From sequence record SRR2962707_1740: 62,760 nucleotides of DNA. One strand, 5' to 3'. Made by a program: the position numbers and the translations under genes. Under the pieces are notes generated by a model. That model saw only the letters and a list, made by a program, of their open reading frames with translations. It was not told the DNA's origin and searched no databases. Positions 4,678 to 62,760 of the stretch are shown here, piece by piece. Numbering within the stretch: the stretch's first letter is position 1; the number at the start of each line of letters is the position of its first letter.

Positions 4678-5976
4678 TTAACGCGCGATCAACTTAGCAC
4701 GCTTAGTAAAGCGCGCCAGCACCTTATAAAGCCCATGAGCGTCATGGCTACCAGCTAATTCACGAATGGAGTGCATACCAAAAGTTGGCAAGCCAATATC
4801 GATCGTCGGCACACCGATTTCTCCTGAGGTTATCGGCCCAATCGTGCTGCCACACGCCATGTCGCTGCGCACGACAAAGCTCTGTACTGTGTAGTTTTCT
4901 TCAGCGGCAATATCCCGGTACACACTCGCCGTTTCGCTGTTGGTGGCATAACGCTGATTCGCGTTAATCTTGATCACCGCACCTTGGTTAATCATAGGAG
5001 CGTGATTTGCATCGTGCATGCTAGCGTAATTCGGATGCAACGCATGCGCGTTGTCTGCAGACACCAACATCGAACGCTGCATAGCCTGTACATATTGCTC
5101 TGGATTTGGCGATAAGCGACGCAGTACATCTTCCAAAAACGGCCCATTCGCGCCACAAGCAGACAAACTGCCGATCTCTTCATGATCGGTACAAATCAAC
5201 AAACTTGGACGCTGATTATCTGAATCTAATAACGCTTGCATACCAACAAAGCAACTCAGCAAATTATCCAATCGAGCGGAGCAAATGTACTCTTGATGCA
5301 AGCCCACTAACGACGGCTTCTGAGTATCGTAAAGGCTGAGCTCAAAATCCAATATGGTTGCCACTTTCGCATCTGGATGCTGCTTCTCAATTTGAGTTTT
5401 CAGCAAAAGTTGCAGATCGAATGTGTTTTCTGCGCCACATAAAATAGGCAAAATTTCGTTTTGTGGGTTCACAGAAAACGCTTCATTGGCTTTTCTATTC
5501 AAATGGATGGCCAGATTAGGCACCACAGCAATAGGGTCTTTAAAATCCACCAGACGGCTACTAATGTCACCGTCTTGGTTTTTGTAACTAACGCGACCTG
5601 CGATCGACAAGTCACGGTCTAGCCAGGTGTGCAGCAACACCCCGCCATACACTTCCACACCCAATTGGTGATGGCCATGACGCTGCACATGAGCATTCGG
5701 TTTCAGCTTTAAGCACGGACTGTCTGTATGCGCCCCTATCATTCGCCAGCCACTTTGATGAAAATCCAATTGCGGACTCGTAAAGGCAATCAGTGACGAG
5801 TCATTACGGGTCACAAAATATTTTCCACCTTCATCAATCACCCAACTATCTTCTTCTAATAGTTCAATGAAACCCGCATTGGTTAATGCTTGGCGCATGC
5901 TGTCTGTGGCATGAAAAGGAGTGGGAGAATCTTGTAAAAAAGATAACAAAGTATGATTAAAGCTAGAATATTCCAT
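4678..5976 (-). CDS. apeB: M18 family aspartyl aminopeptidase
   Basis: GAHTDSP, RLDNL, DHEEIGS, SADNAH, GSTIGP, MHSIRE; ATG 5976 with AGGA RBS. Confidence 0.9.
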   Translation of the reverse strand: MEYSSFNHTLLSFLQDSPTPFHATDSMRQALTNAGFIELLEEDSWVIDEGGKYFVTRNDSSLIAFTSPQLDFHQSGWRMIGAHTDSPCLKLKPNAHVQRHGHHQLGVEVYGGVLLHTWLDRDLSIAGRVSYKNQDGDISSRLVDFKDPIAVVPNLAIHLNRKANEAFSVNPQNEILPILCGAENTFDLQLLLKTQIEKQHPDAKVATILDFELSLYDTQKPSLVGLHQEYICSARLDNLLSCFVGMQALLDSDNQRPSLLICTDHEEIGSLSACGANGPFLEDVLRRLSPNPEQYVQAMQRSMLVSADNAHALHPNYASMHDANHAPMINQGAVIKINANQRYATNSETASVYRDIAAEENYTVQSFVVRSDMACGSTIGPITSGEIGVPTIDIGLPTFGMHSIRELAGSHDAHGLYKVLARFTKRAKLIAR

Positions 5977-52519: not shown

Positions 52520-53203
52520 ATGTCTAAAGTACATTTTGTTGGTGGTGAAAAAGGCGGCGTTGGCAAATCCATGACCGCGCGCGTGTTAGCCCAGTATTAC
52601 ATTGATAATGAACGGCCGTTTCTCGGCTTTGATTGCGACTCTTCCCACGCGACCTTCTCGCGGTTTTATCAAGATTTCTCCTCCCCTATTATCATTGGTG
52701 AAGAAGACAGCCTAGATGGCATGTTAGCGGCCATTGAAGAATACCCAGATCGTGACCTCATTATTGATTTGGCCGCCCAAGCCGCTCAACCGCTTGGCGT
52801 TTGGATCGAAGAAACAGACGTCTTTGGGCTGTTGGATGAAATGGGTTATCAGGTGTGTTTGTGGCACGTAATGGACGATGGCGCGGATTCAGTCGCCCTG
52901 CTTGAGCAATTATTAACCCGCTATCAACAACCTTCGGTTGATTTTGTCGTGGTGCAAAACTTTGGTCGTGGCAGTGACTTCTCTCGCTTTCAAAAATCAG
53001 ACACCTACAAGCAAGCCATCGAACGCGATGCCTTAATTCTGGAACTCGCTAAACTTCAAACCAAATTAACGCAGAAAATAGACTTTAATAGCAGCAGCTT
53101 TTGGTCAGTGGCCAATGACCGAAGTATTATGAATATCGCAGAGCGTCAGCGAATGAAAGTCTGGCTGCGCAAAGTCTATGAAGAACTCGATAAAATAGGC
53201 TAA
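52520..53203 (+). CDS. ParA/MinD-superfamily P-loop NTPase (MobD-like)
   Basis: Deviant Walker A GGEKGGVGKS, FDCD, IIDLAA. Confidence 0.7.
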   Translation: MSKVHFVGGEKGGVGKSMTARVLAQYYIDNERPFLGFDCDSSHATFSRFYQDFSSPIIIGEEDSLDGMLAAIEEYPDRDLIIDLAAQAAQPLGVWIEETDVFGLLDEMGYQVCLWHVMDDGADSVALLEQLLTRYQQPSVDFVVVQNFGRGSDFSRFQKSDTYKQAIERDALILELAKLQTKLTQKIDFNSSSFWSVANDRSIMNIAERQRMKVWLRKVYEELDKIG

Positions 53204-53357: not shown

Positions 53358-54221
53358 TTATTCCTGCACGTCCATGTATTTGTTTGCCCACACACGGTTT
53401 TCTTCTAGCGTTGAGTAACGTGTCGACAATTCTGAAGCGTTTAGCGTGCCTTCGGCAATGCCTCTTTGCTCACGCAAGCAGTCGTACGTCGCCTTGATCG
53501 CGGCAAAATACGCGGCATGACCATTAACAATAATGCGCACACCATTGGCAGCAAGACGTTCACGATCGCGTAGCTCTGGGTTGTCGTAAGACACCAACAT
53601 AACAGGAATGGTCAAATGTTGAGTGATTTGCTCAAGATGGTCAAAGTCACGAATACCGACCATACAAATACCATCAACCCCAACCGCTTGATACGCCGTC
53701 ACACGCGTGATGGTTTCTTCGATGGTGAGTTGGCCGGCATTCGTACGAGCAATGATGCTCATCGCAGGATCAATACGCGCATCCAATGCGGCTTTCAATT
53801 TGCCTACCGCCTCTTCTAGCGGAATTAAATCCGTTGATTTATGACCGTATTTGGCAGGCAAAAGTGTGTCTTCAATCGTCAACGCAGCAACACCCGCTCG
53901 CTCTAGTTCGGTGATGGTACGAATGACATTCAAAGCATTCCCGTAGCCATGATCTGCATCAGCAATAATAGGCAAACGGGCAACACGACCAATACGAGTT
54001 GCTTGTTCAGTGAATTCACTCAAAGTGATCAAGGCAAAATCGGGCGCGGCCAATACTTGAAGTGACGCAACAGAGCCGCCAAGAATACCAACTTCAAAAC
54101 CAAGATCCGCGGCAATGCGTGCCGACATAGGATCGAAAGTAGACGCTGTGTAGTAACATTTATTGCTTGCTAATAAGGCACGAAAGTCATTTCGTAGATC
54201 GTGCTGGGAAGGTGTTGCCAT
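53358..54221 (-). CDS. Oxaloacetate decarboxylase (PEP mutase/isocitrate lyase family, PA4872-like)
   Basis: [37 protein letters not shown]. Confidence 0.85.
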
Positions 54222-54424: not shown

Positions 54425-54448
54425 AAAAAAGCCGACGTAAACGTCGGC
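54425..54448 (-). terminator. Terminator ending the F420 operon
   Basis: On minus strand GCCGACGT-TT-ACGTCGGC-TTTTTT. Confidence 0.85.
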
Positions 54449-54479
54449 CATGGTATTGCTTAGTATCCACTCAATGCCA

Positions 54480-55487
54480 TTACATGGCTTTAAACTGAGG
54501 AATAATATGACGACCATACTGGGCGATGATCTCTTCTTCATCACCACTGTCTAAATAGATATTAAACTGCGTGGTGCCGGCTTCTTCTAGCGCTTTGACC
54601 CGTGCGATATGATCATCCACTGTGCCCAGTACACAAAAACTTTTCACAATGTCTTCGGTAATGAAATCCAAGAAAGGATTATCACTCTGGCCGTGTTTTG
54701 AATAATCGTAACCACGACGTTTTTCAATGTAATCCGTTAAACTCTTCGGTACTAATCCAGAGTCATTACCGTATTTTTCGACAATATCAGCCACATGGTT
54801 ACCCACCATCGCAGGAAACCATTTCGTGTGTTCAATGCAATAATCTATGTCGCCAAAGTAGGCTGGCGCGGCCGCCTGTACTTTGAAATTCGACATATCA
54901 CGGCCTGCTTTTTCTCCGGCACTAATCGCTTGATCTTTGAACCATTTTACCAAATCAGGATCACCAATTTGCAGGATCAAACCGTCACCCACCTCGCCCG
55001 CTGTCGCCAGCGCTTTAGGCCCATATGCGCCAATCCAAACCGGTAGTTCATAGCCAGTTGCCCAAGGTAATTTGACTGGCTCTGGGCATTCGCCGTATTC
55101 CACCTCTTCTCCACGTACCATGGCTTTTACCTTGGTGGTGAATTCTGCAAGACGCGCCAATGTTGCCGGTTTTTTCCCCATCACCCGCATCGACGAATCA
55201 CCACGGCCGAGACCAATGTCGAAACGACCGTTACTTTGGTGCGCCAAACTTGCGTACAGACTTGCAGACAATGACCAATCTCGAATATTTGGGTTGGTAA
55301 CGCAAGGCCCAAAACGCATGGTTTTGGTGTGCTCCATGCACATCGCCATCGCCACAAAGGATTCACGCCACAAAATATGTGAATCATAAAACCAACAGTA
55401 ATCAAAGCCGGCCGCTTCCGCTTGACGGACTAAATTTCGAGCTCGATCTGGGCTGACAAACCCTTTAAACGTAATACCGAATTCCAT
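54480..55487 (-). CDS. LLM-class F420-dependent oxidoreductase, Mer-like (CPS_4043/TIGR03842-like)
   Basis: AGFDYCWFYDSH, GPCVTNP, SNGRFDIGLGRGDS, GAYGPKAL; last gene of the cof operon. Confidence 0.88.
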   Translation of the reverse strand: MEFGITFKGFVSPDRARNLVRQAEAAGFDYCWFYDSHILWRESFVAMAMCMEHTKTMRFGPCVTNPNIRDWSLSASLYASLAHQSNGRFDIGLGRGDSSMRVMGKKPATLARLAEFTTKVKAMVRGEEVEYGECPEPVKLPWATGYELPVWIGAYGPKALATAGEVGDGLILQIGDPDLVKWFKDQAISAGEKAGRDMSNFKVQAAAPAYFGDIDYCIEHTKWFPAMVGNHVADIVEKYGNDSGLVPKSLTDYIEKRRGYDYSKHGQSDNPFLDFITEDIVKSFCVLGTVDDHIARVKALEEAGTTQFNIYLDSGDEEEIIAQYGRHIIPQFKAM

Positions 55488-55575
55488 GCTGAGTTCCTCT
55501 TATGCTTGTGATGTCTTTTAATATTTTTATGGTTTAAAACCGTTCAATAACGGGGTCTAACGTCAGTCAATACAT

Positions 55576-56268
55576 TCAGTGTTGTGGAGGGCAAATCCGT
55601 ATACCGGCATGACTAAACGGCACCTCTTTTGAGATATTCAAACGAATCAAAATAGGCGTAATTGCTTCGATGCAGCGAGCACTTTCCGCCAAACCGGCGT
55701 TATAGGCTTTCGTCCCCATGGTATCGATCAGCGCCATAACCTGTTTTTTCGACGCCAAGTCATTACCGCAAACCAAAATATCGCAATTAATAGGACGCGA
55801 TAAATCGTTCAGAGTGATCGCCGACACATTGTGTAAGGCGCCCACCACAGGAACCGAATCCCCCAATAGAGCTTGCGCATGTTCAGTGACAGAACCGGCG
55901 GCTGGCATTTCTACGGCTTTCGGGTTGCCAGGGGCCAAAGGCACCACTATGTCCACCAGAATTTTCCCTGTTAGCCGTGGTTTGAGTGTATTCAAGGTGG
56001 CATCGTGTGCACTGTAAGGCACAGACAAAATCACCATACTGCTTGCTGCTTGAGCCGCCGCTTCCATAGACAGGCCAGTAATGCTGGCTGCATTCCCCCC
56101 AAGCTCAGCCAATTGAGCAACCAGCTCTTCGGCCAAAGCGTGCGCTTTTTGTGCGTCACGAGAGCCTAATACGACGCTCGTTCCTGCCATTGCAAGGCGC
56201 AAGGCGAGACCTTTCCCTTGTGGGCCGGTGCCACCGATAATGGCGACTTTTTCGCTTTCTCTACTCAT
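55576..56268 (-). CDS. npdG: F420H2:NADP+ oxidoreductase (Fno)
   Basis: [35 protein letters not shown]. Confidence 0.9.
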
Positions 56269-56325
56269 TCTATTCCCCTTTTTATGCAGCGTTTCTTATG
56301 GGTGTTCTAGTCATTTAGCGTTCAC

Positions 56326-57099
56326 TTATTTAAAAAGATCTTCATTTTGTGCACGGATAAGATCGCGGCTCTGACTGTCTGTTTTTGGCCAATCAAGACC
56401 ACGAAACACAATCACCGGCGCTTTCGCACTTTTTTCCATCAATAAACCAGAGGCCGCGGCCAGCTCATCCGCAAACGCCGGCGCTGTCACACTAAGCGGG
56501 CGTCCAAAGGCGTCCATTTCCCCTTCCATCTTCATCACCCCAGGCACATTAGCGAGACCAATAGCCACGTTGGTTTGACCTAGACGCCAAGGTCGTCCAA
56601 AGGTGTCGCTGATCACAATGCCCAGATCGCATTGGAAATGTGCTTCTAATCGCTGACACAATAATTGCGCGCTGCGATCTGGATTCTCAGGCAATAAAAT
56701 CAATTGCCCTGGGTGGTCCGCATTGGATTCATCCACCGCCGCATTGGCGCAAATGTAACCATTTTTATGCTCTGCAATGAGCACACCTTCTTGCTGGTCT
56801 GGACGTTTAACCGCCCGCACTATGCGTTTTGACTGAGATAAAATCACCTCAACTTTACGAGGGTCTTTATTGACGGTTTTGGCTAACTCGATGGCGTCTG
56901 CGCTTGGTGTGATCTGATCCAAATAGGCACAAGCGCCTTCGCTTTTGGAGACCACTTTGTGCGCGATCACTAAAATATCCCCCGCCACCAAGGCTTTTTG
57001 TTGCGCCTGAAAGGTGTCGATAATGACTTGCGCAAGGTCATCCCCTTGCTGAAAATCAGGCAAGCCTTCAAGGCGAAACATGGTCATGGACTCAGGCAT
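56326..57099 (-). CDS. cofE: F420-0:gamma-glutamyl ligase (single-domain)
   Basis: KVVSKSEG, ANAAVDESN, DTFGRPWRLG, ADELAAAS. Confidence 0.93.
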   Translation of the reverse strand: MPESMTMFRLEGLPDFQQGDDLAQVIIDTFQAQQKALVAGDILVIAHKVVSKSEGACAYLDQITPSADAIELAKTVNKDPRKVEVILSQSKRIVRAVKRPDQQEGVLIAEHKNGYICANAAVDESNADHPGQLILLPENPDRSAQLLCQRLEAHFQCDLGIVISDTFGRPWRLGQTNVAIGLANVPGVMKMEGEMDAFGRPLSVTAPAFADELAAASGLLMEKSAKAPVIVFRGLDWPKTDSQSRDLIRAQNEDLFK

Positions 57100-57751
57100 A
57101 GCGTCGCTCCTTTATAAAGGGTGTATCTGCTCCCCGACGCCACGCAGAAAAGCGCTGAGGCTGCTGAGCAATGGCCCTTTCGAGGTCATCACTTTGATCA
57201 ATGTCTTGTGATAAATTCGGTAATAAAAGCTGGCAACAAGCGAGGCCCTGTAACCCAGCTTCAGCGTCATGTTTTGCGGCGGATTCTGTGCCATAGCGAA
57301 ACGCAATGGCATCAGGCGGAGATGTCGCCAACGCATTGGTGCCACCGTCTTTGGCCTTAGCGATAACCACTTGATGGCACCTTGCTGCTTGCAACAAGGC
57401 ACTAAACTCCCCCTGATCCAATAAGGCGATGTCGCTCGGTATAATAATTTGATGGCTGAATCCGGCGTTTTTCACCCATTGGCAGGCTTGCGATAACGCA
57501 CCATTCAGACCTTTTTTGCCGTCTTCACGCAGGGTGTTTGCCCCATATGATGCGGCTAACGACAACATCTCATCGGACTCACTAATCACCATCATATTGA
57601 GCGCTGGAAAGTGACGACGAAAAAACATCAAGGTATTCGTGAACATACTGATCGCCAACTGCTCACGCTCACGATGAGACAAGCAGCCCGCTAACCGCTG
57701 TTTCGCATGGGCTGGGCGTTTCATTGGAATAACCACACACAGTTTGCTCAT
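57092..57751 (-). CDS. cofC: F420 precursor guanylyltransferase (CofC/FbiD)
   Basis: IPMK..AKQRL, GLNGAL, SDIA, GGTNAL, DID..DDL. Confidence 0.9.
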   Translation of the reverse strand: MSKLCVVIPMKRPAHAKQRLAGCLSHREREQLAISMFTNTLMFFRRHFPALNMMVISESDEMLSLAASYGANTLREDGKKGLNGALSQACQWVKNAGFSHQIIIPSDIALLDQGEFSALLQAARCHQVVIAKAKDGGTNALATSPPDAIAFRYGTESAAKHDAEAGLQGLACCQLLLPNLSQDIDQSDDLERAIAQQPQRFSAWRRGADTPFIKERRYA

Positions 57752-58710
57752 TAGGCAGCCCTCTGCTTACGTTGTTGTTCCGCAAAAGCCACAGTGTTGG
57801 TCAATAACGCGCATTTATCGTCGCGGGTTTTCATCAGCGTTGGCGTCACCAAGACATCCAGACCTTGATCCTGCAACCAAGGCAACTCATCGCGGTCCGC
57901 ATCATCGATCACCATGGCATTCAATAACGAGCCATAGCATTGATAAATGCCTTTTGAATCGGTGCTTTTCCCCATGCTTTCCAGCATTTTATCCGCAGGC
58001 CCTTTAACGGTTTTACCTGCGATCAAGGGGGAAATGGCAATCACATACGCGGTGCTTTTTTCAATCGCTTCTTGAAGCCCCGGAGTGGCCAAAATGGCAC
58101 CAATACTAACGATGGGGTTACTCGGTGCGATCACGATCACATCGCTCTTAGCAATCTGAAACAAGGCTTCCGAAGTGGCTCTGGCGATGTTTGCTCCCTT
58201 ATATTCCACCCCCAACACCTTAGGCTTGCATTGCTCACGTACAAAATATTCTTGAAACGACAACCAACCCGATTCGGTTTTTACTTGAGTTTGCACCACG
58301 TCATCCGTTGGCAACAAAATCGGCATGGTGACACCGTGACGTTTCGCCAAACGCTGAGTAATGTGGCTTGCTCGAACCCCTTGTTTGCGTAATTCGGTGC
58401 GGTAAATATGAGTGGCCAAATCCAAATCCCCAAGGGTCATCCAGGTTTCTTGGCCAAGGGCACTCAGTTCGTTTAATACTTGATAGGACTCGTTTTTCCT
58501 GCCCCAGCCTCGCTCCCGGTCGATCTGATCTCCTAAGGAATACAGTAATGTATCTATGTCTGGTGATACCCATAAACCATGAAACGCGTCATCGTCTGCA
58601 ACATTGCCAATGATGTGAGTCGTACTGGCATAGACACTGGTTGCCAATCCCTCTGCCGCTTTTGCTCCCCCCACACCACCAGCCAATAAAGTAATGGTCA
58701 AATCGGACAT
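57751..58710 (-). CDS. cofD: Phospholactate/PEP transferase (CofD/FbiA)
   Basis: LAGGVGGAK, NVADD, SPDIDT, LGDLDLATH, FQEYFV, PSNPIVSI, KGPA. Confidence 0.95.
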   Translation of the reverse strand: MSDLTITLLAGGVGGAKAAEGLATSVYASTTHIIGNVADDDAFHGLWVSPDIDTLLYSLGDQIDRERGWGRKNESYQVLNELSALGQETWMTLGDLDLATHIYRTELRKQGVRASHITQRLAKRHGVTMPILLPTDDVVQTQVKTESGWLSFQEYFVREQCKPKVLGVEYKGANIARATSEALFQIAKSDVIVIAPSNPIVSIGAILATPGLQEAIEKSTAYVIAISPLIAGKTVKGPADKMLESMGKSTDSKGIYQCYGSLLNAMVIDDADRDELPWLQDQGLDVLVTPTLMKTRDDKCALLTNTVAFAEQQRKQRAA

Positions 58711-59924
58711 TAAGCGACTCCTTGAATGGGGATGCGTCGAATCACTGAGGTGTCTAATGCAAAGGTTTCTAATGGTTCATATAGGGTATTGCGTTGTACT
58801 GCCTCTAAACCGGCCGAGTGAATATTCGCCACCATGTCTTCAGGCATGACTTCTTGCCCATGCGTCGCCCCTGCCGCCCGAGAAATACTCTCGTTCATCA
58901 AGGTGCCACCCAAATCATTCGCCCCAGAACGCAGCATTTTCGCCGCCACATCCGGCCCCATTTTGACCCAAGAGGCTTGAATATTATCGATGTGACCTTG
59001 CAGCATTAAGCGCGCAATAGCGTGCATTTTAAAATGCTCATCCCGCGTCGGACCTGGGCGGACGACATCTGGGTTATCGTTATATAAGCGAGTTTCATAA
59101 TGGATAAAACCCAATGGCACAAACTCCGTAAAACCACCGGTTTCCTTTTGAATATCACGCAACAATTCAAGATGGTTAGCCCAATGGATCGGCTGATCCA
59201 CATGGCCATACATGATCGTTGAGGTGGTTCTCACCCCCACTGAATGAGCGGCTTTAACAATGCGCACCCACTCTTCTGTGGTCAGCTTATTTTTGGTCAA
59301 TTGTTTACGAATTTCAGTGTCTAAAATCTCCGCGGCTGTGCCTGGCATGGTGCCCAGCCCCAGCGCTTTCAGTTCGCTTAAAAACACCTCAGGCTCCAGT
59401 CGAGCTTTCTTACAGCCATACCAAATTTCAAAAGGTGAAAAGGCATGAATATGAATATCTGGCACGCGTTTTTTCACAGCAACAATAAGATCACGGTAAT
59501 AATTCGCATCAATATCTGGGTGCAAGCCGCCTTGAATACAGACCTCAGTCGCACCACGAGCCCACGCTTCTTCCGCCCTGCCTGCCACTTGTTCAACCGT
59601 TAAAAATTCCGCGTCTTGATCGCCTTTTTCTTTGGCAAAATTGCAAAATCGGCAGCCCATATAGCACACGTTAGTAAAGTTAATATTGCGTGTAATAACA
59701 TAGCTTCCGGTGTTACCGACTCTTTTTTGTCGAACTTGATCGGCGGTATCTAACACCGCTTGCGCTTCTTCACCTTGCGTCGCAAACAACACACAAGCGT
59801 CGGCAACCGATAGCTCATCACCTTGTAAACACTGGGCTAAAATCTGTTGTACTGGCGCACTAACCGCTTGGCTAAAAAAAGCGGGCGCGCGGCGGTCTTG
59901 ATAAGTTGACTGTATTGGGTTCAT
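58710..59924 (-). CDS. cofH: FO synthase subunit CofH (radical SAM)
   Basis: NINFTNVCYMGCRFC, MPGTAAEIL, GANDLGGTLMNESISRAAGA. Confidence 0.93.
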   Translation of the reverse strand: MNPIQSTYQDRRAPAFFSQAVSAPVQQILAQCLQGDELSVADACVLFATQGEEAQAVLDTADQVRQKRVGNTGSYVITRNINFTNVCYMGCRFCNFAKEKGDQDAEFLTVEQVAGRAEEAWARGATEVCIQGGLHPDIDANYYRDLIVAVKKRVPDIHIHAFSPFEIWYGCKKARLEPEVFLSELKALGLGTMPGTAAEILDTEIRKQLTKNKLTTEEWVRIVKAAHSVGVRTTSTIMYGHVDQPIHWANHLELLRDIQKETGGFTEFVPLGFIHYETRLYNDNPDVVRPGPTRDEHFKMHAIARLMLQGHIDNIQASWVKMGPDVAAKMLRSGANDLGGTLMNESISRAAGATHGQEVMPEDMVANIHSAGLEAVQRNTLYEPLETFALDTSVIRRIPIQGVA

Positions 59925-61063
59925 GCTGGAACACCTCCTGACTGAACATAGGTAGAGTGCGCAGCCTGCCCTGTTAGCAGAGCGATTTTGTGCGCCAAAT
60001 GAGTGGTGAGATAGCCTTCTTTTTGCTGATAAAAACGCTCGTAAATAGTCAATCGCTCAGCAAGGGAATACCCCAAACCTTCACACGCTTGCGCCACACT
60101 GCTGATCTGAGGCCAGGCGCGCTCTGGGTTAATGAAGTCTTTTGTTAAAGGGGAAATGCCACCAAAATCATTAATACCCGCACCGACATAACAGCCATAT
60201 TCCCTCTCTAAGTTAGGCGGTGCCTGAATGCTGATTTCAGCCGGTAGAATAAGACGCGCCATCGCGATGGTGCGTTTCATGTCGTCTAAGTCGGGTTCTT
60301 GGCAACCCGCCATTGTGGTGCCTTCTTTGGCACGAAAGTTCTGGATAATGACTTCTTGAATATGGCCATAAGAAAGGTGACGGTCACGAATGGCGATCAA
60401 GCTATTCACCCGGTCTTGCCAGGTTTCCCCAATGCCAATCAAGATTCCTGTGGTAAAAGCGATGTCCAGTTTTCCCGCCTGCTCTATGGTGTCGAGCCGA
60501 CGTTTCGGCGTTTTATCCGGACACGAGTAATGGGCTTGGCCTTTTTTAAGCAAATCGTTGGAGACATTTTCCAGCATCATCCCCATGCTCGCCGCCACAG
60601 GCTTGAGGTGCTTTAATTCGTCGTATGACAAAGCACCAGCGTTCACATGAGGCAACAACGAGGTGTTCGACAAGACATTTTCACATTGGTCATGCAGGTA
60701 AGCTAATGTGCTGTCGTACCCTAACGCCGTCAGCAGCTCGCGGGCTTTTTGATGGCGCTCTTCCGGTCGCTCTCCCAAGCTAAATAAGGCCTCCTTACAA
60801 TCTAGTTGCTCCCCTTCAAACGCCGTTTTAAGCACTTGAGATGGGGTCATGTAGTTCGCATGAGGTGAATCAGGGTCTTGCACAAAGGTGCAATAACCGC
60901 ACGCATCACGACACATATTCGTTAGTGGGATAAAAACTTTTTTAGAATAGGTAAGCTGTTTGCCCCAGTGTGCATCACGTAGCTGAGCCGCTTGCTGGCA
61001 AAGCGAATACAAGTCTGGTCCAGTGACAAACTCATAAGACATAGCTTCAGAAACAGAAATCAT
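59921..61063 (-). CDS. cofG: FO synthase subunit CofG (radical SAM)
   Basis: TYSKKVFIPLTNMCRDACGYC, FTTGILIGIGE, QEVIIQNF, QAPPNL; ATG 61063 with GGAG RBS. Confidence 0.93.
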   Translation of the reverse strand: MISVSEAMSYEFVTGPDLYSLCQQAAQLRDAHWGKQLTYSKKVFIPLTNMCRDACGYCTFVQDPDSPHANYMTPSQVLKTAFEGEQLDCKEALFSLGERPEERHQKARELLTALGYDSTLAYLHDQCENVLSNTSLLPHVNAGALSYDELKHLKPVAASMGMMLENVSNDLLKKGQAHYSCPDKTPKRRLDTIEQAGKLDIAFTTGILIGIGETWQDRVNSLIAIRDRHLSYGHIQEVIIQNFRAKEGTTMAGCQEPDLDDMKRTIAMARLILPAEISIQAPPNLEREYGCYVGAGINDFGGISPLTKDFINPERAWPQISSVAQACEGLGYSLAERLTIYERFYQQKEGYLTTHLAHKIALLTGQAAHSTYVQSGGVPA

Positions 61064-61094
61064 ATTCACTCTCCGGCAAACCTAAAATTTATTT

Positions 61095-61110
61095 TTTACC
61101 ATTTGGTATA
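61095..61110. promoter_or_regulatory. RutR-type operator upstream of cofG
   Basis: TTTACCATTTGGTATA versus RutR consensus TTGACCAnnTGGTCAA. Confidence 0.7.
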
Positions 61111-61192
61111 AAAACTAATATCAAGAATATCAAAGAGAGTAAATTGTTTTTTTTAGTGCAGAGACGCACCAATAACCGACCTCGAAACTAAA

Positions 61193-61220
61193 GTTTAGTT
61201 AACTTTAAAGTTAACTAAAC
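61193..61220. repeat. Perfect 28-bp palindrome
   Basis: GTTTAGTTAACTTTAAAGTTAACTAAAC equals its own reverse complement. Confidence 0.9.
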
Positions 61221-61319
61221 GGTTAAGATCATGAATAGGAAAGGTTTTTATTTTTTAATCTATATTCTTAAGGGGAGATACACTGCATTTAAACAATAAA
61301 AAATCTTAAATTAATAAAT

Positions 61320-61967
61320 CTATTTTTTATTATGTGCACCAAGAGCGCGCACAACAAAGTCGGTGACGGCTTTCTCTGCTCGTTCAAAGTCGGGTTCGGT
61401 CAAATCACTTTTCCCTAATAAAACTTCAATCTGAGTTGAAAAATCCGCATAAGTTTGCGTCGCGGCCCAAATGGTAAAAAATAAATGTTCAGGGTCAGTT
61501 TTTTCAATTAATCCCTTATTTATCCATGAGTTAACCAATGCTACATCGCGATCAAACTGAGGTTTAAGATGGCTTATTAAGTAATCCTTTAATACCGGAG
61601 CCCCACTGATGATTTCATGGGCGAAGACTTTGGAACCATTGGGGTAGAGGCGTGAGATCTGCATTTTTTCTCGCACGTAGCTGCGGATCACCTCTTCTGG
61701 GGTATCCCCATGATTTTCAAGAAAGGAGAGTTTTTCGATCCATATGTCGAGAATCTCTTCTAGTACTTTTCTATATAGTAAGTCTTTGTTTGGAAAGTAA
61801 TAAATAAGATTTTGCTTGGATATTTTAGATATTTCCGCAATGCGTTCCATAGAAGCGCCGCTAAATCCTTTAGACGCAAATACAATTTCTGCCGACCGTA
61901 ATATACGTGACTCCAATATCTTTCTATTAACCGACTGCTTAGTATATTTTGGCTTTTTCTCAATCAA
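61320..61967 (-). CDS. rutR: RutR-type TetR regulator of pyrimidine utilisation
   Basis: TetR HTH (ISKQNLIYYFPNK); RutR-type C-terminus SKVFAHEIISGAP and FFTIWAATQTYADF; TTG start. Confidence 0.82.
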   Translation of the reverse strand: MIEKKPKYTKQSVNRKILESRILRSAEIVFASKGFSGASMERIAEISKISKQNLIYYFPNKDLLYRKVLEEILDIWIEKLSFLENHGDTPEEVIRSYVREKMQISRLYPNGSKVFAHEIISGAPVLKDYLISHLKPQFDRDVALVNSWINKGLIEKTDPEHLFFTIWAATQTYADFSTQIEVLLGKSDLTEPDFERAEKAVTDFVVRALGAHNKK

Positions 61968-62100
61968 AGTTTATCCCTACCTTATTTGACAATACTTATA
62001 AAAATAACTATCTATAATCTTATTTACTTCATTCTACCTTTAAAGTAGCATCGAAAATCACTTGAATTATCATATCATTTTGATTGCTAATATTAAAAGT

Positions 62101-62116
62101 TGGCCTGCTAATTGCT
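62101..62116 (+). promoter_or_regulatory. Sigma54 (-24/-12) promoter
   Basis: TGGCCTGCTAATTGCT: GG at 62102-03 and GC at 62114-15, canonical spacing. Confidence 0.7.
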
Positions 62117-62223
62117 TTCTGTAAAGTCTAATACACTTTTTGCCAATCACGACTCAACGCTGGATCATTATATTCTTTCTTCGATAAAAAAGAGTATGTG
62201 ATTCACTTTGTTTCGATAACTTT

Positions 62224-62239
62224 TTTACCTTTTGGTAAA
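62224..62239. promoter_or_regulatory. RutR-type operator upstream of the Zn-dependent hydrolase
   Basis: TTTACCTTTTGGTAAA, perfect TTTACC/GGTAAA arms. Confidence 0.72.
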
Positions 62240-62281
62240 AAGAATGATTTCAAAGAGAGATACGATACCTAGGAGAAAAGT

Positions 62282-62760
62282 ATGCAAGATCTACGCATTA
62301 ATGAGCAACGTCTTTGGGGCACCTTAATGGAAATGGGTGAAATAGGCGGCACCGAGAAAGGTGGCTGTAACCGGCTTGCTGGCACCGACTTAGATAAGCA
62401 ATCACGTGATCTTTTTGTGGCTTGGTGTAAGGCCTGTGGCTGCGAAGTGAACATTGATAAAATCGGTAATATTTTTGCGCGCCGACCAGGAAAAAACAAC
62501 GACTTACCTGCAGTAGGCACTGGCAGCCATCTTGATACTCAGCCTACCGGTGGTAAATTCGATGGTGTTTTTGGTGTCCTTTCTGGTGTTGAAGTACTGC
62601 GCACCTTGCATGAAAACAACATTGAAACACCCACGCCAATGGAGTTCTCTGTTTGGACAAACGAAGAAGGCTCCCGCTTTCAGCCTGCCATGCAAGGTTC
62701 AGGTACCTATGTTGGCCGCTTTGACCTTGAAACCGAATTAAACAAAACCGACGTCAATGG
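62282..62760 (+). CDS. M20 Zn-dependent N-carbamoyl-amino-acid hydrolase, beta-ureidopropionase (PydC)-like; partial, runs off the window
   Basis: Not in the ORF track because it has no stop in the window. Read directly: MQDLRINEQRLWGTLMEMGEIGGTEKGGCNRLA...GSHLDTQPTGGKFDGVFGVL...WTNEEGSRF; AGGAGA RBS. Confidence 0.88.
   Translation, partial: MQDLRINEQRLWGTLMEMGEIGGTEKGGCNRLAGTDLDKQSRDLFVAWCKACGCEVNIDKIGNIFARRPGKNNDLPAVGTGSHLDTQPTGGKFDGVFGVLSGVEVLRTLHENNIETPTPMEFSVWTNEEGSRFQPAMQGSGTYVGRFDLETELNKTDVN

Follow-up and report, generated by a model that had tools for sequence, protein, structure and literature searches.

The locus described here raises the question of what a marine gammaproteobacterium would do with a complete set of genes for coenzyme F420 placed beside a regulator and an amidase of pyrimidine catabolism. 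It was found in a Marinomonas stretch of 62,760 nucleotides from sequence record SRR2962707_1740, hereafter called the window, in which seven minus-strand open reading frames (ORFs) running from 61069 to 54480 correspond to cofG-cofH-cofD-cofC-cofE-fno and to a gene for a luciferase-like monooxygenase (LLM)-class enzyme, with a terminator-like hairpin after the last of them. Why Proteobacteria make F420 is presented as an open question in the available text of a 2021 review of this coenzyme (PMC8498797). For this locus, the probable answer is that Fno reduces F420 with NADPH and that the LLM enzyme uses the resulting F420H2 to reduce uracil or thymine, which would make it a non-homologous replacement for dihydropyrimidine dehydrogenase within a cassette controlled by a RutR/PydR-type repressor. 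F420-dependent reductive degradation of uracil and thymine had already been proposed in the initial annotation of the window, and the proposal is supported here by comparative genomics, namely by a gap in the pathway, by conserved linkage and by the phyletic pattern. It is from these comparisons that we infer the control by uracil, the production of F420 and the substrate of the LLM enzyme.

The genes of the operon and the hairpin that follows them are given below, with each score in bits against the NCBIfam curated cut-off.

59921–61069, minus strand: cofG, radical-SAM subunit of FO synthase; TIGR03550, 453.3 against 213.35
58710–59924, minus strand: cofH, radical-SAM subunit of FO synthase (404 residues); TIGR03551, 504.7 against 374.1
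57751–58710, minus strand: cofD, 2-phospho-L-lactate transferase (319 residues); TIGR01819, 285.7 against 257.45
57092–57751, minus strand: cofC, F420-pathway guanylyltransferase (219 residues); TIGR03552, 163.2 against 105
56326–57099, minus strand: cofE, F420-0:gamma-glutamyl ligase, single domain (257 residues); TIGR01916, 249.7 against 180.65; PF01996
55576–56268, minus strand: fno/npdG, NADPH-dependent F420 reductase (230 residues); TIGR01915, 201.6 against 149.8
54480–55487, minus strand: LLM-class F420-dependent oxidoreductase of family TIGR03842 (335 residues), the proposed F420H2-dependent uracil/thymine reductase; 523 against 295.45
54430–54449, minus strand: intrinsic-terminator-like hairpin of 8 pairs, 6 of them GC, followed by a T-run, directly 3′ of the LLM stop codon

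All seven proteins score above their cut-offs, so that the full F420 biosynthesis set (CofG, CofH, CofC, CofD and CofE) is present together with npdG. The arrangement read in the initial annotation, with overlapping stop and start codons along cofGHDCE and then fno/npdG, the LLM gene and a terminator, was borne out by the ORF coordinates, the family scores and the hairpin: cofG and cofH overlap by 4 nt, cofH and cofD by 1 nt, cofD and cofC by 1 nt and cofC and cofE by 8 nt, and gaps of 57 nt and 88 nt separate cofE from fno and fno from the LLM gene, respectively. The cofG ORF starts with a GTG at 61069, and the ATG at 61063, preceded by GGAGA, reads as the more likely start. CofE carries no FbiB-type C-terminal domain.

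The gap in the pathway becomes apparent on the other side of the regulator, where a divergent gene, taken for a beta-ureidopropionase-like one in the initial annotation, was identified as that of an M20-family amidase. The window ends within this gene, and the region past its end was read in a related genome (G001), which is 100% complete and 99% identical over the last 1.76 kb of the window.

62282–62760, plus strand: 5′ part of an M20 hydantoinase/carbamoylase-family amidase, candidate N-carbamoyl-beta-alanine amidohydrolase (PydC role); incomplete in the window, 414 residues long in G001

Looking past the window end for a dihydropyrimidinase and a transporter, as had been suggested, recovered both: the divergent operon of G001 consists of the M20 amidase, an NCS1 nucleobase:cation symporter and a dihydropyrimidinase (PydB), after which come unrelated genes for a GST and for pqiABC. 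The dihydropyrimidinase scores 579.9 bits on TIGR02033 (cut-off 393.25) and 218 bits as an allantoinase, and the amidase scores 418 bits on TIGR01879 (cut-off 204) and 585 bits on NF006769 (cut-off 452), which is a family-level assignment. The downstream part of the Pyd pathway (PydB and the PydC role) is therewith present at family level, in G001 rather than in the window. The search for preT/preA and rutA, also suggested at the outset, found none of them in G001. In the case of PreA/PydA, NF006183 is matched with 43 bits at best (cut-off 335), and the sole DHO_dh-domain protein over the cut-off is the quinone-dependent PyrD; in the case of PreT/PydX, the sole Fer4_20-domain protein is GltD, which adjoins GltB. 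An explanation by the RutA-type (Rut) pathway was likewise rejected, with no RutA over the cut-off in G001 and a best score of 17 bits. This genome holds steps 2 and 3 of the pathway and the transporter, with no known enzyme for step 1. Since a pyrimidine breakdown cluster is present without its usual first enzyme, the TIGR03842 LLM most likely performs the first step.

The features of the LLM enzyme itself agree with the use of F420. Its match to TIGR03842 (F420_CPS_4043) spans residues 2–332 on profile positions 1–329, and nine of ten diverse full-length representatives (32–51% identity) are also above the cut-off of this family, for which a search among 50%-identity clusters gave 190 representatives at E below 1e-30. 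The only domain matched is PF00296; no DHO_dh domain (PF01180) was found, so the protein is not a member of PydA/PreA. The TIGR03842 family has no solved structure, and the best sequence matches of the LLM enzyme in the PDB are to Mer, at about 105 bits. An AlphaFold2 model built from a 22-sequence alignment reached a predicted local distance difference test score (pLDDT) of 91.5 and a predicted template modelling score (pTM) of 0.90, and the top ten Foldseek matches of this model were all F420-dependent LLMs, the best being Mer (template modelling score 0.80–0.82, 26–28% identity), followed by F420-dependent alcohol, hydroxymycolate and glucose-6-phosphate dehydrogenases. On the strength of the family match and the model, the protein is predicted to be an F420-dependent LLM with a (beta/alpha)8 fold, encoded in one operon with cofGHDCE and fno. 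That it might be Mer itself was considered and rejected, as it stays under both Mer cut-offs (132.6 against 276 on NF002619 and 122.6 against 348.7 on TIGR03555) and has a Thr in place of E6 of Mer, a residue that we take to be important there, the title of entry 8qq8 ('Mutant E6Q') pointing the same way. Transfer of a hydride from F420H2 to the C5=C6 bond of uracil would be chemically in line with known F420H2-dependent ene-reductions, as far as these are covered by the available text of the sources.

Conserved linkage provides the second line of evidence. Leisingera and numerous marine Gammaproteobacteria encode relatives of the LLM enzyme at 75–91% identity. When species-representative genomes were scanned, 376 LLM relatives were obtained, of which the best 80 loci were kept with 10 kb flanks and compared with the window proteins by tblastn. 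The claim was examined only in Gammaproteobacteria and in a single genome from outside this class. All seven genes, colinear in the order cofG-H-D-C-E-fno-LLM, are found in 76 of these 80 loci; contig ends truncate three of the remaining loci, and the last, from Amphritea, has no CofG match. A RutR-like gene is present in 73 loci, and at least one of the M20, NCS1 and dihydropyrimidinase genes lies within 10 kb in 64. At least four layouts were distinguished: in the Marinomonas type, the operon and the Pyd genes are transcribed divergently; in the Halomonas type, M20 directly follows the LLM gene, with RutR, dihydropyrimidinase and NCS1 downstream; in the Colwellia type, NCS1 and dihydropyrimidinase precede cofG and M20 lies downstream; and a Cellvibrionaceae type forms the fourth. 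M20, NCS1 and dihydropyrimidinase are all missing within 10 kb in 16 of the 80 loci. Three of these are truncated, and the 13 full-length ones come from Vibrio, Alteromonas and Thalassolituus and from one metagenome-assembled genome (MAG) of the Oceanospirillaceae. Annotation of three of the 13 placed an omega-aminotransferase of the AptA type (about 690 bits) and a LysR regulator beside RutR. A CoA-acylating (methyl)malonate-semialdehyde dehydrogenase was looked for in one of them, the Vibrio locus L057, which holds a fragment of it that runs off the edge of the locus. The aminotransferase and the semialdehyde dehydrogenase are predicted consumers of beta-alanine and beta-aminoisobutyrate, and the operon is therefore linked to genes of pyrimidine or of beta-alanine catabolism in several arrangements. 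Dihydropyrimidinase was found over the cut-off in five genomes of such loci, 3.6–4.6 kb past the locus edge in four of the five. Across the 80 loci, the LLM enzyme is much better conserved than the Cof proteins, with a median identity of 85% against 63% for CofG, 56% for CofD and 46% for CofC, the Cof proteins ranging from 46 to 71%. In the Amphritea locus (L087), no CofG match of at least 50% coverage was found at 4882–5594, between the RutR-like gene and CofH, where RUT-type boxes are present; cofG may be elsewhere in this genome or divergent.

The third line of evidence is the phyletic pattern, which was followed in 201 evenly sampled genomes of the same order, none of them less than 90% complete. 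The LLM enzyme occurs in seven of them, namely five of the six Marinomonas and members of two other families, while dihydropyrimidinase is over its cut-off in 18 genomes and PreA is found in 12. The 18 genomes with dihydropyrimidinase divide into seven with the LLM only, eight with PreA only and three with neither, and none has both. One family is even split in this respect, with the LLM in G136 and PreA in G051 and G202. Additionally, the sole sampled Marinomonas without the LLM (G024) also has no CofH, CofD, dihydropyrimidinase or PreA. Among 50 further LLM-bearing genomes, picked from the 80 loci to span genera and possibly overlapping with the order sample, dihydropyrimidinase was found in 49 (in 48 over the cut-off, the miss being a MAG) and PreA in one, counts in which same-genus genomes are kin rather than independent and many genomes are of unknown completeness. 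The co-occurrence across genomes that the initial annotation had put forward as a check proved strong, with the LLM tracking dihydropyrimidinase in 7/7 and 49/50 genomes and with PreA distributed in a complementary manner, apart from two exceptions discussed below.

The control of the cassette by pyrimidines is suggested by the regulator and by its putative operators, which are as follows.

61320–61967, minus strand: predicted RutR/PydR-type TetR repressor (215 residues), with TetR_N PF00440 and the YcdC/RutR-type C-terminal domain PF08362 (162 bits)
61095–61110, no strand assigned: RUT-type box 1, TTTACCATTTGGTATA, about 30–45 nt upstream of the cofG start
62224–62239, no strand assigned: RUT-type box 2, TTTACCTTTTGGTAAA, in the divergent rutR/M20-amidase intergenic region
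61193–61220, no strand assigned: perfect 28-nt palindrome, GTTTAGTTAACTTT/AAAGTTAACTAAAC, between the rutR stop codon and cofG

The RutR-type regulator announced upstream of the operon is supported by its two domains, and the matching boxes announced in both promoter regions turned out to be the sole two such sites in the window. In fact, the pattern TWTACCN4GGTAWA, with at most one mismatch, has only two matches in the whole 62.7 kb, against a chance expectation of 0.30 and with two or more matches in 4 of 100 shuffles; this pattern was built from the same two sites, and independent support therefore comes from the conservation of the boxes in other genera. The palindromic RUT consensus, which we take to be TTGACCANNTGGTCAA, specifies 14 positions, and each box agrees with it at 11 of them. 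The 16-bp E. coli RUT box is printed as TTGACCANNTGGTGAA in PMC2952853. Of the 75 loci that could be evaluated, 70 have an ACC-N4-GGT box in the 450 nt that precede cofG, over a background of 0.15 per 460 nt; its usual form is TTTACC-N4-GGTAAAA, and it often occurs in two copies, 33–36 bp apart. In 1.57 Mb of loci, 207 strict-core boxes were counted, 144 of which lie at most 300 nt upstream of a tracked gene, including 91 ahead of cofG, 35 in RutR/M20 divergent regions, 7 ahead of M20 and 6 ahead of RutR. In Amphritea, boxes are found ahead of RutR, the cof operon, M20 and NCS1.

The regulator could be aligned to the E. coli RutR structures 6z1b and 3loc (154 bits), and it keeps L74, W77 and W167 of the uracil pocket. 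According to the available text of PMC4325133, the four residues L74, W77, L78 and W167 bind uracil in E. coli RutR, with L78 keeping thymine out, and PydR, a homologue of RutR, represses the reductive pathway in Pseudomonas putida. With Ile in the place of L78, the present regulator may respond to thymine as well. The 28-nt palindrome at 61193–61220 may be a terminator of rutR or a second operator. At the place that matches it in 14 other Marinomonas loci, from −157 to −169 relative to cofG, a TTAACC-N4-GGTTAA box was observed. A further resemblance concerns 61094–61145 and 62222–62262, in each of which the box is followed by AGAAT..TCAAAGAGAG in the same plus-strand orientation, yet the genes behind them point in opposite ways; this shared stretch may stem from the duplication of part of an operator or may constitute a second motif.

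The mechanism that we propose from these elements begins with the absence of pyrimidines, when the RutR/PydR-type repressor would occupy the RUT-type boxes ahead of cofG and in the rutR/M20 region. Uracil, and possibly thymine, would free the repressor, as the conserved effector pocket suggests, and the base itself would be brought in by the NCS1 permease. CofG and CofH would then make FO, from which CofC, CofD and CofE would produce F420, and Fno would reduce it with NADPH. In the key step, the TIGR03842 LLM would deliver the hydride of F420H2 to C6 of uracil or thymine, giving 5,6-dihydrouracil or dihydrothymine, whose ring would be opened by the dihydropyrimidinase before the M20 amidase frees beta-alanine or beta-aminoisobutyrate, CO2 and NH3.

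A wider view, which we hold tentatively and with slightly less than even confidence, is that the whole coenzyme pathway could be silent until induced by uracil, the substrate of its one client enzyme, and that the seven genes could form a portable, horizontally spread cassette providing a reductive pathway without the multi-Fe-S dihydropyrimidine dehydrogenase in a host without other F420 metabolism. The idea of the initial annotation that F420 is made here for one reaction fits the content of G001, where the TIGR03842 member is the only F420-type enzyme among three LLMs; since the other two belong to non-F420 families (MsnO8/TIGR03558 and TIGR03571), the cofactor may be made for a single client enzyme, and the LLM-less Marinomonas described above fits as well. 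The same annotation regarded F420 as sporadic in Proteobacteria, which did not hold in this order, where CofH is found in 71 of the 201 genomes and CofD in about 71–72. Most CofH sequences of the order sample lie within an open frame of 800–1000 residues without TIGR03842, which suggests the fused FbiC form, and the split cofG/cofH form is confined to six genomes with the LLM. Of the 72 genomes positive for CofD, only the seven that have the LLM also have dihydropyrimidinase.

Beyond the kinship among the genomes counted, several observations weigh against this interpretation. F420 genes are widespread in the order even where this enzyme is missing, with CofH or CofD present and the LLM absent in 64–65 of the 201 genomes, and F420 therefore has other roles in relatives. 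The regulator stays under both RutR equivalog cut-offs (178.5 against 368 and 163.8 against 230), and Ile replaces L78 in its uracil pocket. Five of the 75 evaluable loci (L059–L061, L078 and L085) have no box upstream of cofG by the pattern used. In G136, the dihydropyrimidinase-NCS1 pair is 98 kb away from the LLM operon. The operon shows no evident source of 2-phospholactate and no evident dehydro-F420-0 reductase, thus more than one F420 variant may be its product; 2-phospholactate, phosphoenolpyruvate (PEP) and 3-phosphoglycerate are the linker options in the review scheme, in the part of that source available (PMC8498797). Moreover, PreA accompanies the LLM module in G240, which belongs to another class, and in G613, a Colwellia MAG, and the replacement is therefore not absolute. 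In both genomes, PreA adjoins its own second dihydropyrimidinase (G240:C48:32219-37235 and G613:C1:218100-222575; G240 has three dihydropyrimidinase paralogues), so that they look like genomes with two parallel reductive pathways. Finally, the RNA evidence comes from one low-depth environmental RNA library only (X18), whose short contigs match the LLM gene, fno, cofD, the cofG/cofH junction and rutR at 99% identity or more and at a depth of 2–6; these contigs, a weak hint that the operon is transcribed, are uninformative on levels, strand and induction, and the parts left uncovered mean nothing. Libraries X4 and X19 are probably DNA.

The alternative that best survives, unlikely as it is, places the LLM enzyme at another step, where it could reduce malonate or methylmalonate semialdehyde with F420H2, or work in reverse and feed Fno for the production of NADPH, the ring being reduced by an unrecognised enzyme elsewhere. 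Alcohol and carbonyl F420 LLMs are indeed among the structural neighbours of the model (Adf 1rhc, FGD2/hydroxymycolate dehydrogenase 9fp4 and Fgd), and Fno is reversible according to the available text of PMC5614548. This alternative also draws on Vibrio, Alteromonas and Thalassolituus, where the aminotransferase described above adjoins the operon, together with the semialdehyde dehydrogenase fragment in the Vibrio locus L057. However, action at another step leaves the missing first enzyme unexplained in G001 and in 49 of the 50 further genomes, and it does not account for an LLM that tracks dihydropyrimidinase and runs opposite to PreA. Additionally, the aminotransferase is unlinked in Marinomonas. 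A further locus (L097, G010:C88, 8068–14756) bears on the same point: its operon comprises a CN-hydrolase amidase, NCS1, dihydropyrimidinase, cytosine deaminase and the LLM, and the cof genes lie on a separate contig, so that a different, nitrilase-type third enzyme and a uracil-producing cytosine deaminase are combined with the same TIGR03842 LLM, which directly follows the deaminase and dihydropyrimidinase genes in an operon without beta-alanine genes.

It is very unlikely that the cluster serves the breakdown of a cyclic ureide other than uracil or thymine, for instance a 5-substituted hydantoin, a dihydroorotate-like compound or another reduced or unsaturated N-heterocycle, with the LLM enzyme reducing or oxidising that compound. 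The names of the families leave room for this, as the dihydropyrimidinase family is also the D-hydantoinase family (TIGR02033), the M20 amidase scores best with models named for allantoate amidohydrolase and hydantoinase/carbamoylase, and NCS1 carriers include allantoin and hydantoin permeases; the sub-cut-off scores of the regulator leave room for it too. On the other hand, the regulator retains all but one of the four RutR residues that line the uracil pocket, its putative operator is similar to the RUT box, the dihydropyrimidinase reaches 580 bits with the dihydropyrimidinase equivalog and 218 with allantoinase, cytosine deaminase shares the operon in G010, genes of beta-alanine and beta-aminoisobutyrate catabolism adjoin in three genera, and it is the pyrimidine-specific PreA that shows the complementary distribution. 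Purely incidental adjacency, with cof-fno-LLM serving an unrelated F420 function or supplying FO to a photolyase, is hardly credible: the order genomes that have CofH or CofD with neither LLM nor Pyd linkage would suit it, but the linkage is kept over at least four gene orders and many genera, RUT-type boxes precede cofG in nearly all evaluable loci, CofH, CofD and dihydropyrimidinase are absent together with the LLM from one Marinomonas genome, and cofC, cofD and cofE would be superfluous if only FO were needed.

The reduction of uracil or thymine by the LLM enzyme can be set against known systems. The closest in logic is the Pyd pathway (PydA/PydX or PreA/PreT), with which the cluster shares the dihydropyrimidinase, the carbamoyl-beta-alanine amidohydrolase, the nucleobase permease and, as predicted, a RutR/PydR-type repressor. 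It differs from it in that a Mer-like (beta/alpha)8 LLM, expected to use F420H2, stands in place of the absent first enzyme, without the DHO_dh domain, the Fe-S domains and the FAD/NAD(P)H subunit of the Pyd dehydrogenase, and in that the whole biosynthetic pathway of the cofactor and an NADPH-dependent reductase are encoded in the same operon, for which co-transcription is predicted. A ferredoxin-dependent clostridial PydAc is a further Pyd variant (Wang et al. 2020, as cited in the available text of PMC12507026). Mer (PDB 1f07, 1z69, 8qpl and 8qpm) is the closest solved structure by fold and by sequence, with the bit score and identity given above, and shares the GP-x-VTNP segment with the LLM enzyme in the alignment; besides the Mer cut-offs and the Thr at E6, the host, an aerobic gammaproteobacterium, sets the two apart.

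A comparable proposal is that of an F420-dependent LLM 'yanthine reductase', made from gene neighbourhoods in Chloroflexota reductive uric-acid clusters (available text of PMC12507026). Both cases were derived from neighbourhood and concern an F420 LLM that would take the part of a PydA-like ring reductase during the reductive breakdown of an N-heterocycle, whereas there the substrate is a purine derivative and the phylum and pathway are others, and the part of that source available describes neither a cofactor operon nor RutR control. In the open-access papers searched (Creative Commons papers in PMC and bioRxiv preprints), no link was found between F420 and the reduction of uracil or thymine, RutR, TIGR03842 or CPS_4043, and a report in a subscription journal is possible. 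With regard to regulation, a parallel is the Salmonella cob/pdu regulon, in which PocR co-induces vitamin B12 synthesis with propanediol degradation. In both systems, cofactor biosynthesis would be tied to the catabolic pathway that needs it, the transcriptional tie being deduced here; cob/pdu has another cofactor, another family of regulator and another pathway, and in the present case a single operon holds both the client enzyme and the genes for its cofactor.

If the proposed reaction is true, it would give a function to TIGR03842, a widespread family, and would define a new enzyme activity, F420H2:uracil/thymine oxidoreductase, as a new non-homologous first enzyme in a textbook catabolic pathway. 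For one large marine bacterial group, it would answer why Proteobacteria make F420, and it would be the first defined physiological job of this coenzyme in Gammaproteobacteria as well as a clear example of substrate-inducible cofactor biogenesis. It could also be an iron-saving solution in the sea. Additionally, a compact and self-sufficient cassette that combines cofactor synthesis, NADPH-driven recycling and the enzyme may serve F420-dependent biocatalysis.

As for the surroundings of the operon, the genes that flank it on the other side in the window are unrelated housekeeping genes. A gene of the PEP-mutase/isocitrate-lyase family at 53358–54221 (minus strand) was considered as a candidate for the supply of the F420 linker and was dropped because it stands beside the operon in only 6 of the 80 loci; it lies 3′ of the operon terminator and is methylisocitrate-lyase-like, with scores under the equivalog cut-offs. 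Among the housekeeping genes, an ORF of 227 residues at 52520–53203 (plus strand) bears a weak likeness to the conjugal transfer protein TraL/ParA-like (73 bits, below the cut-off).

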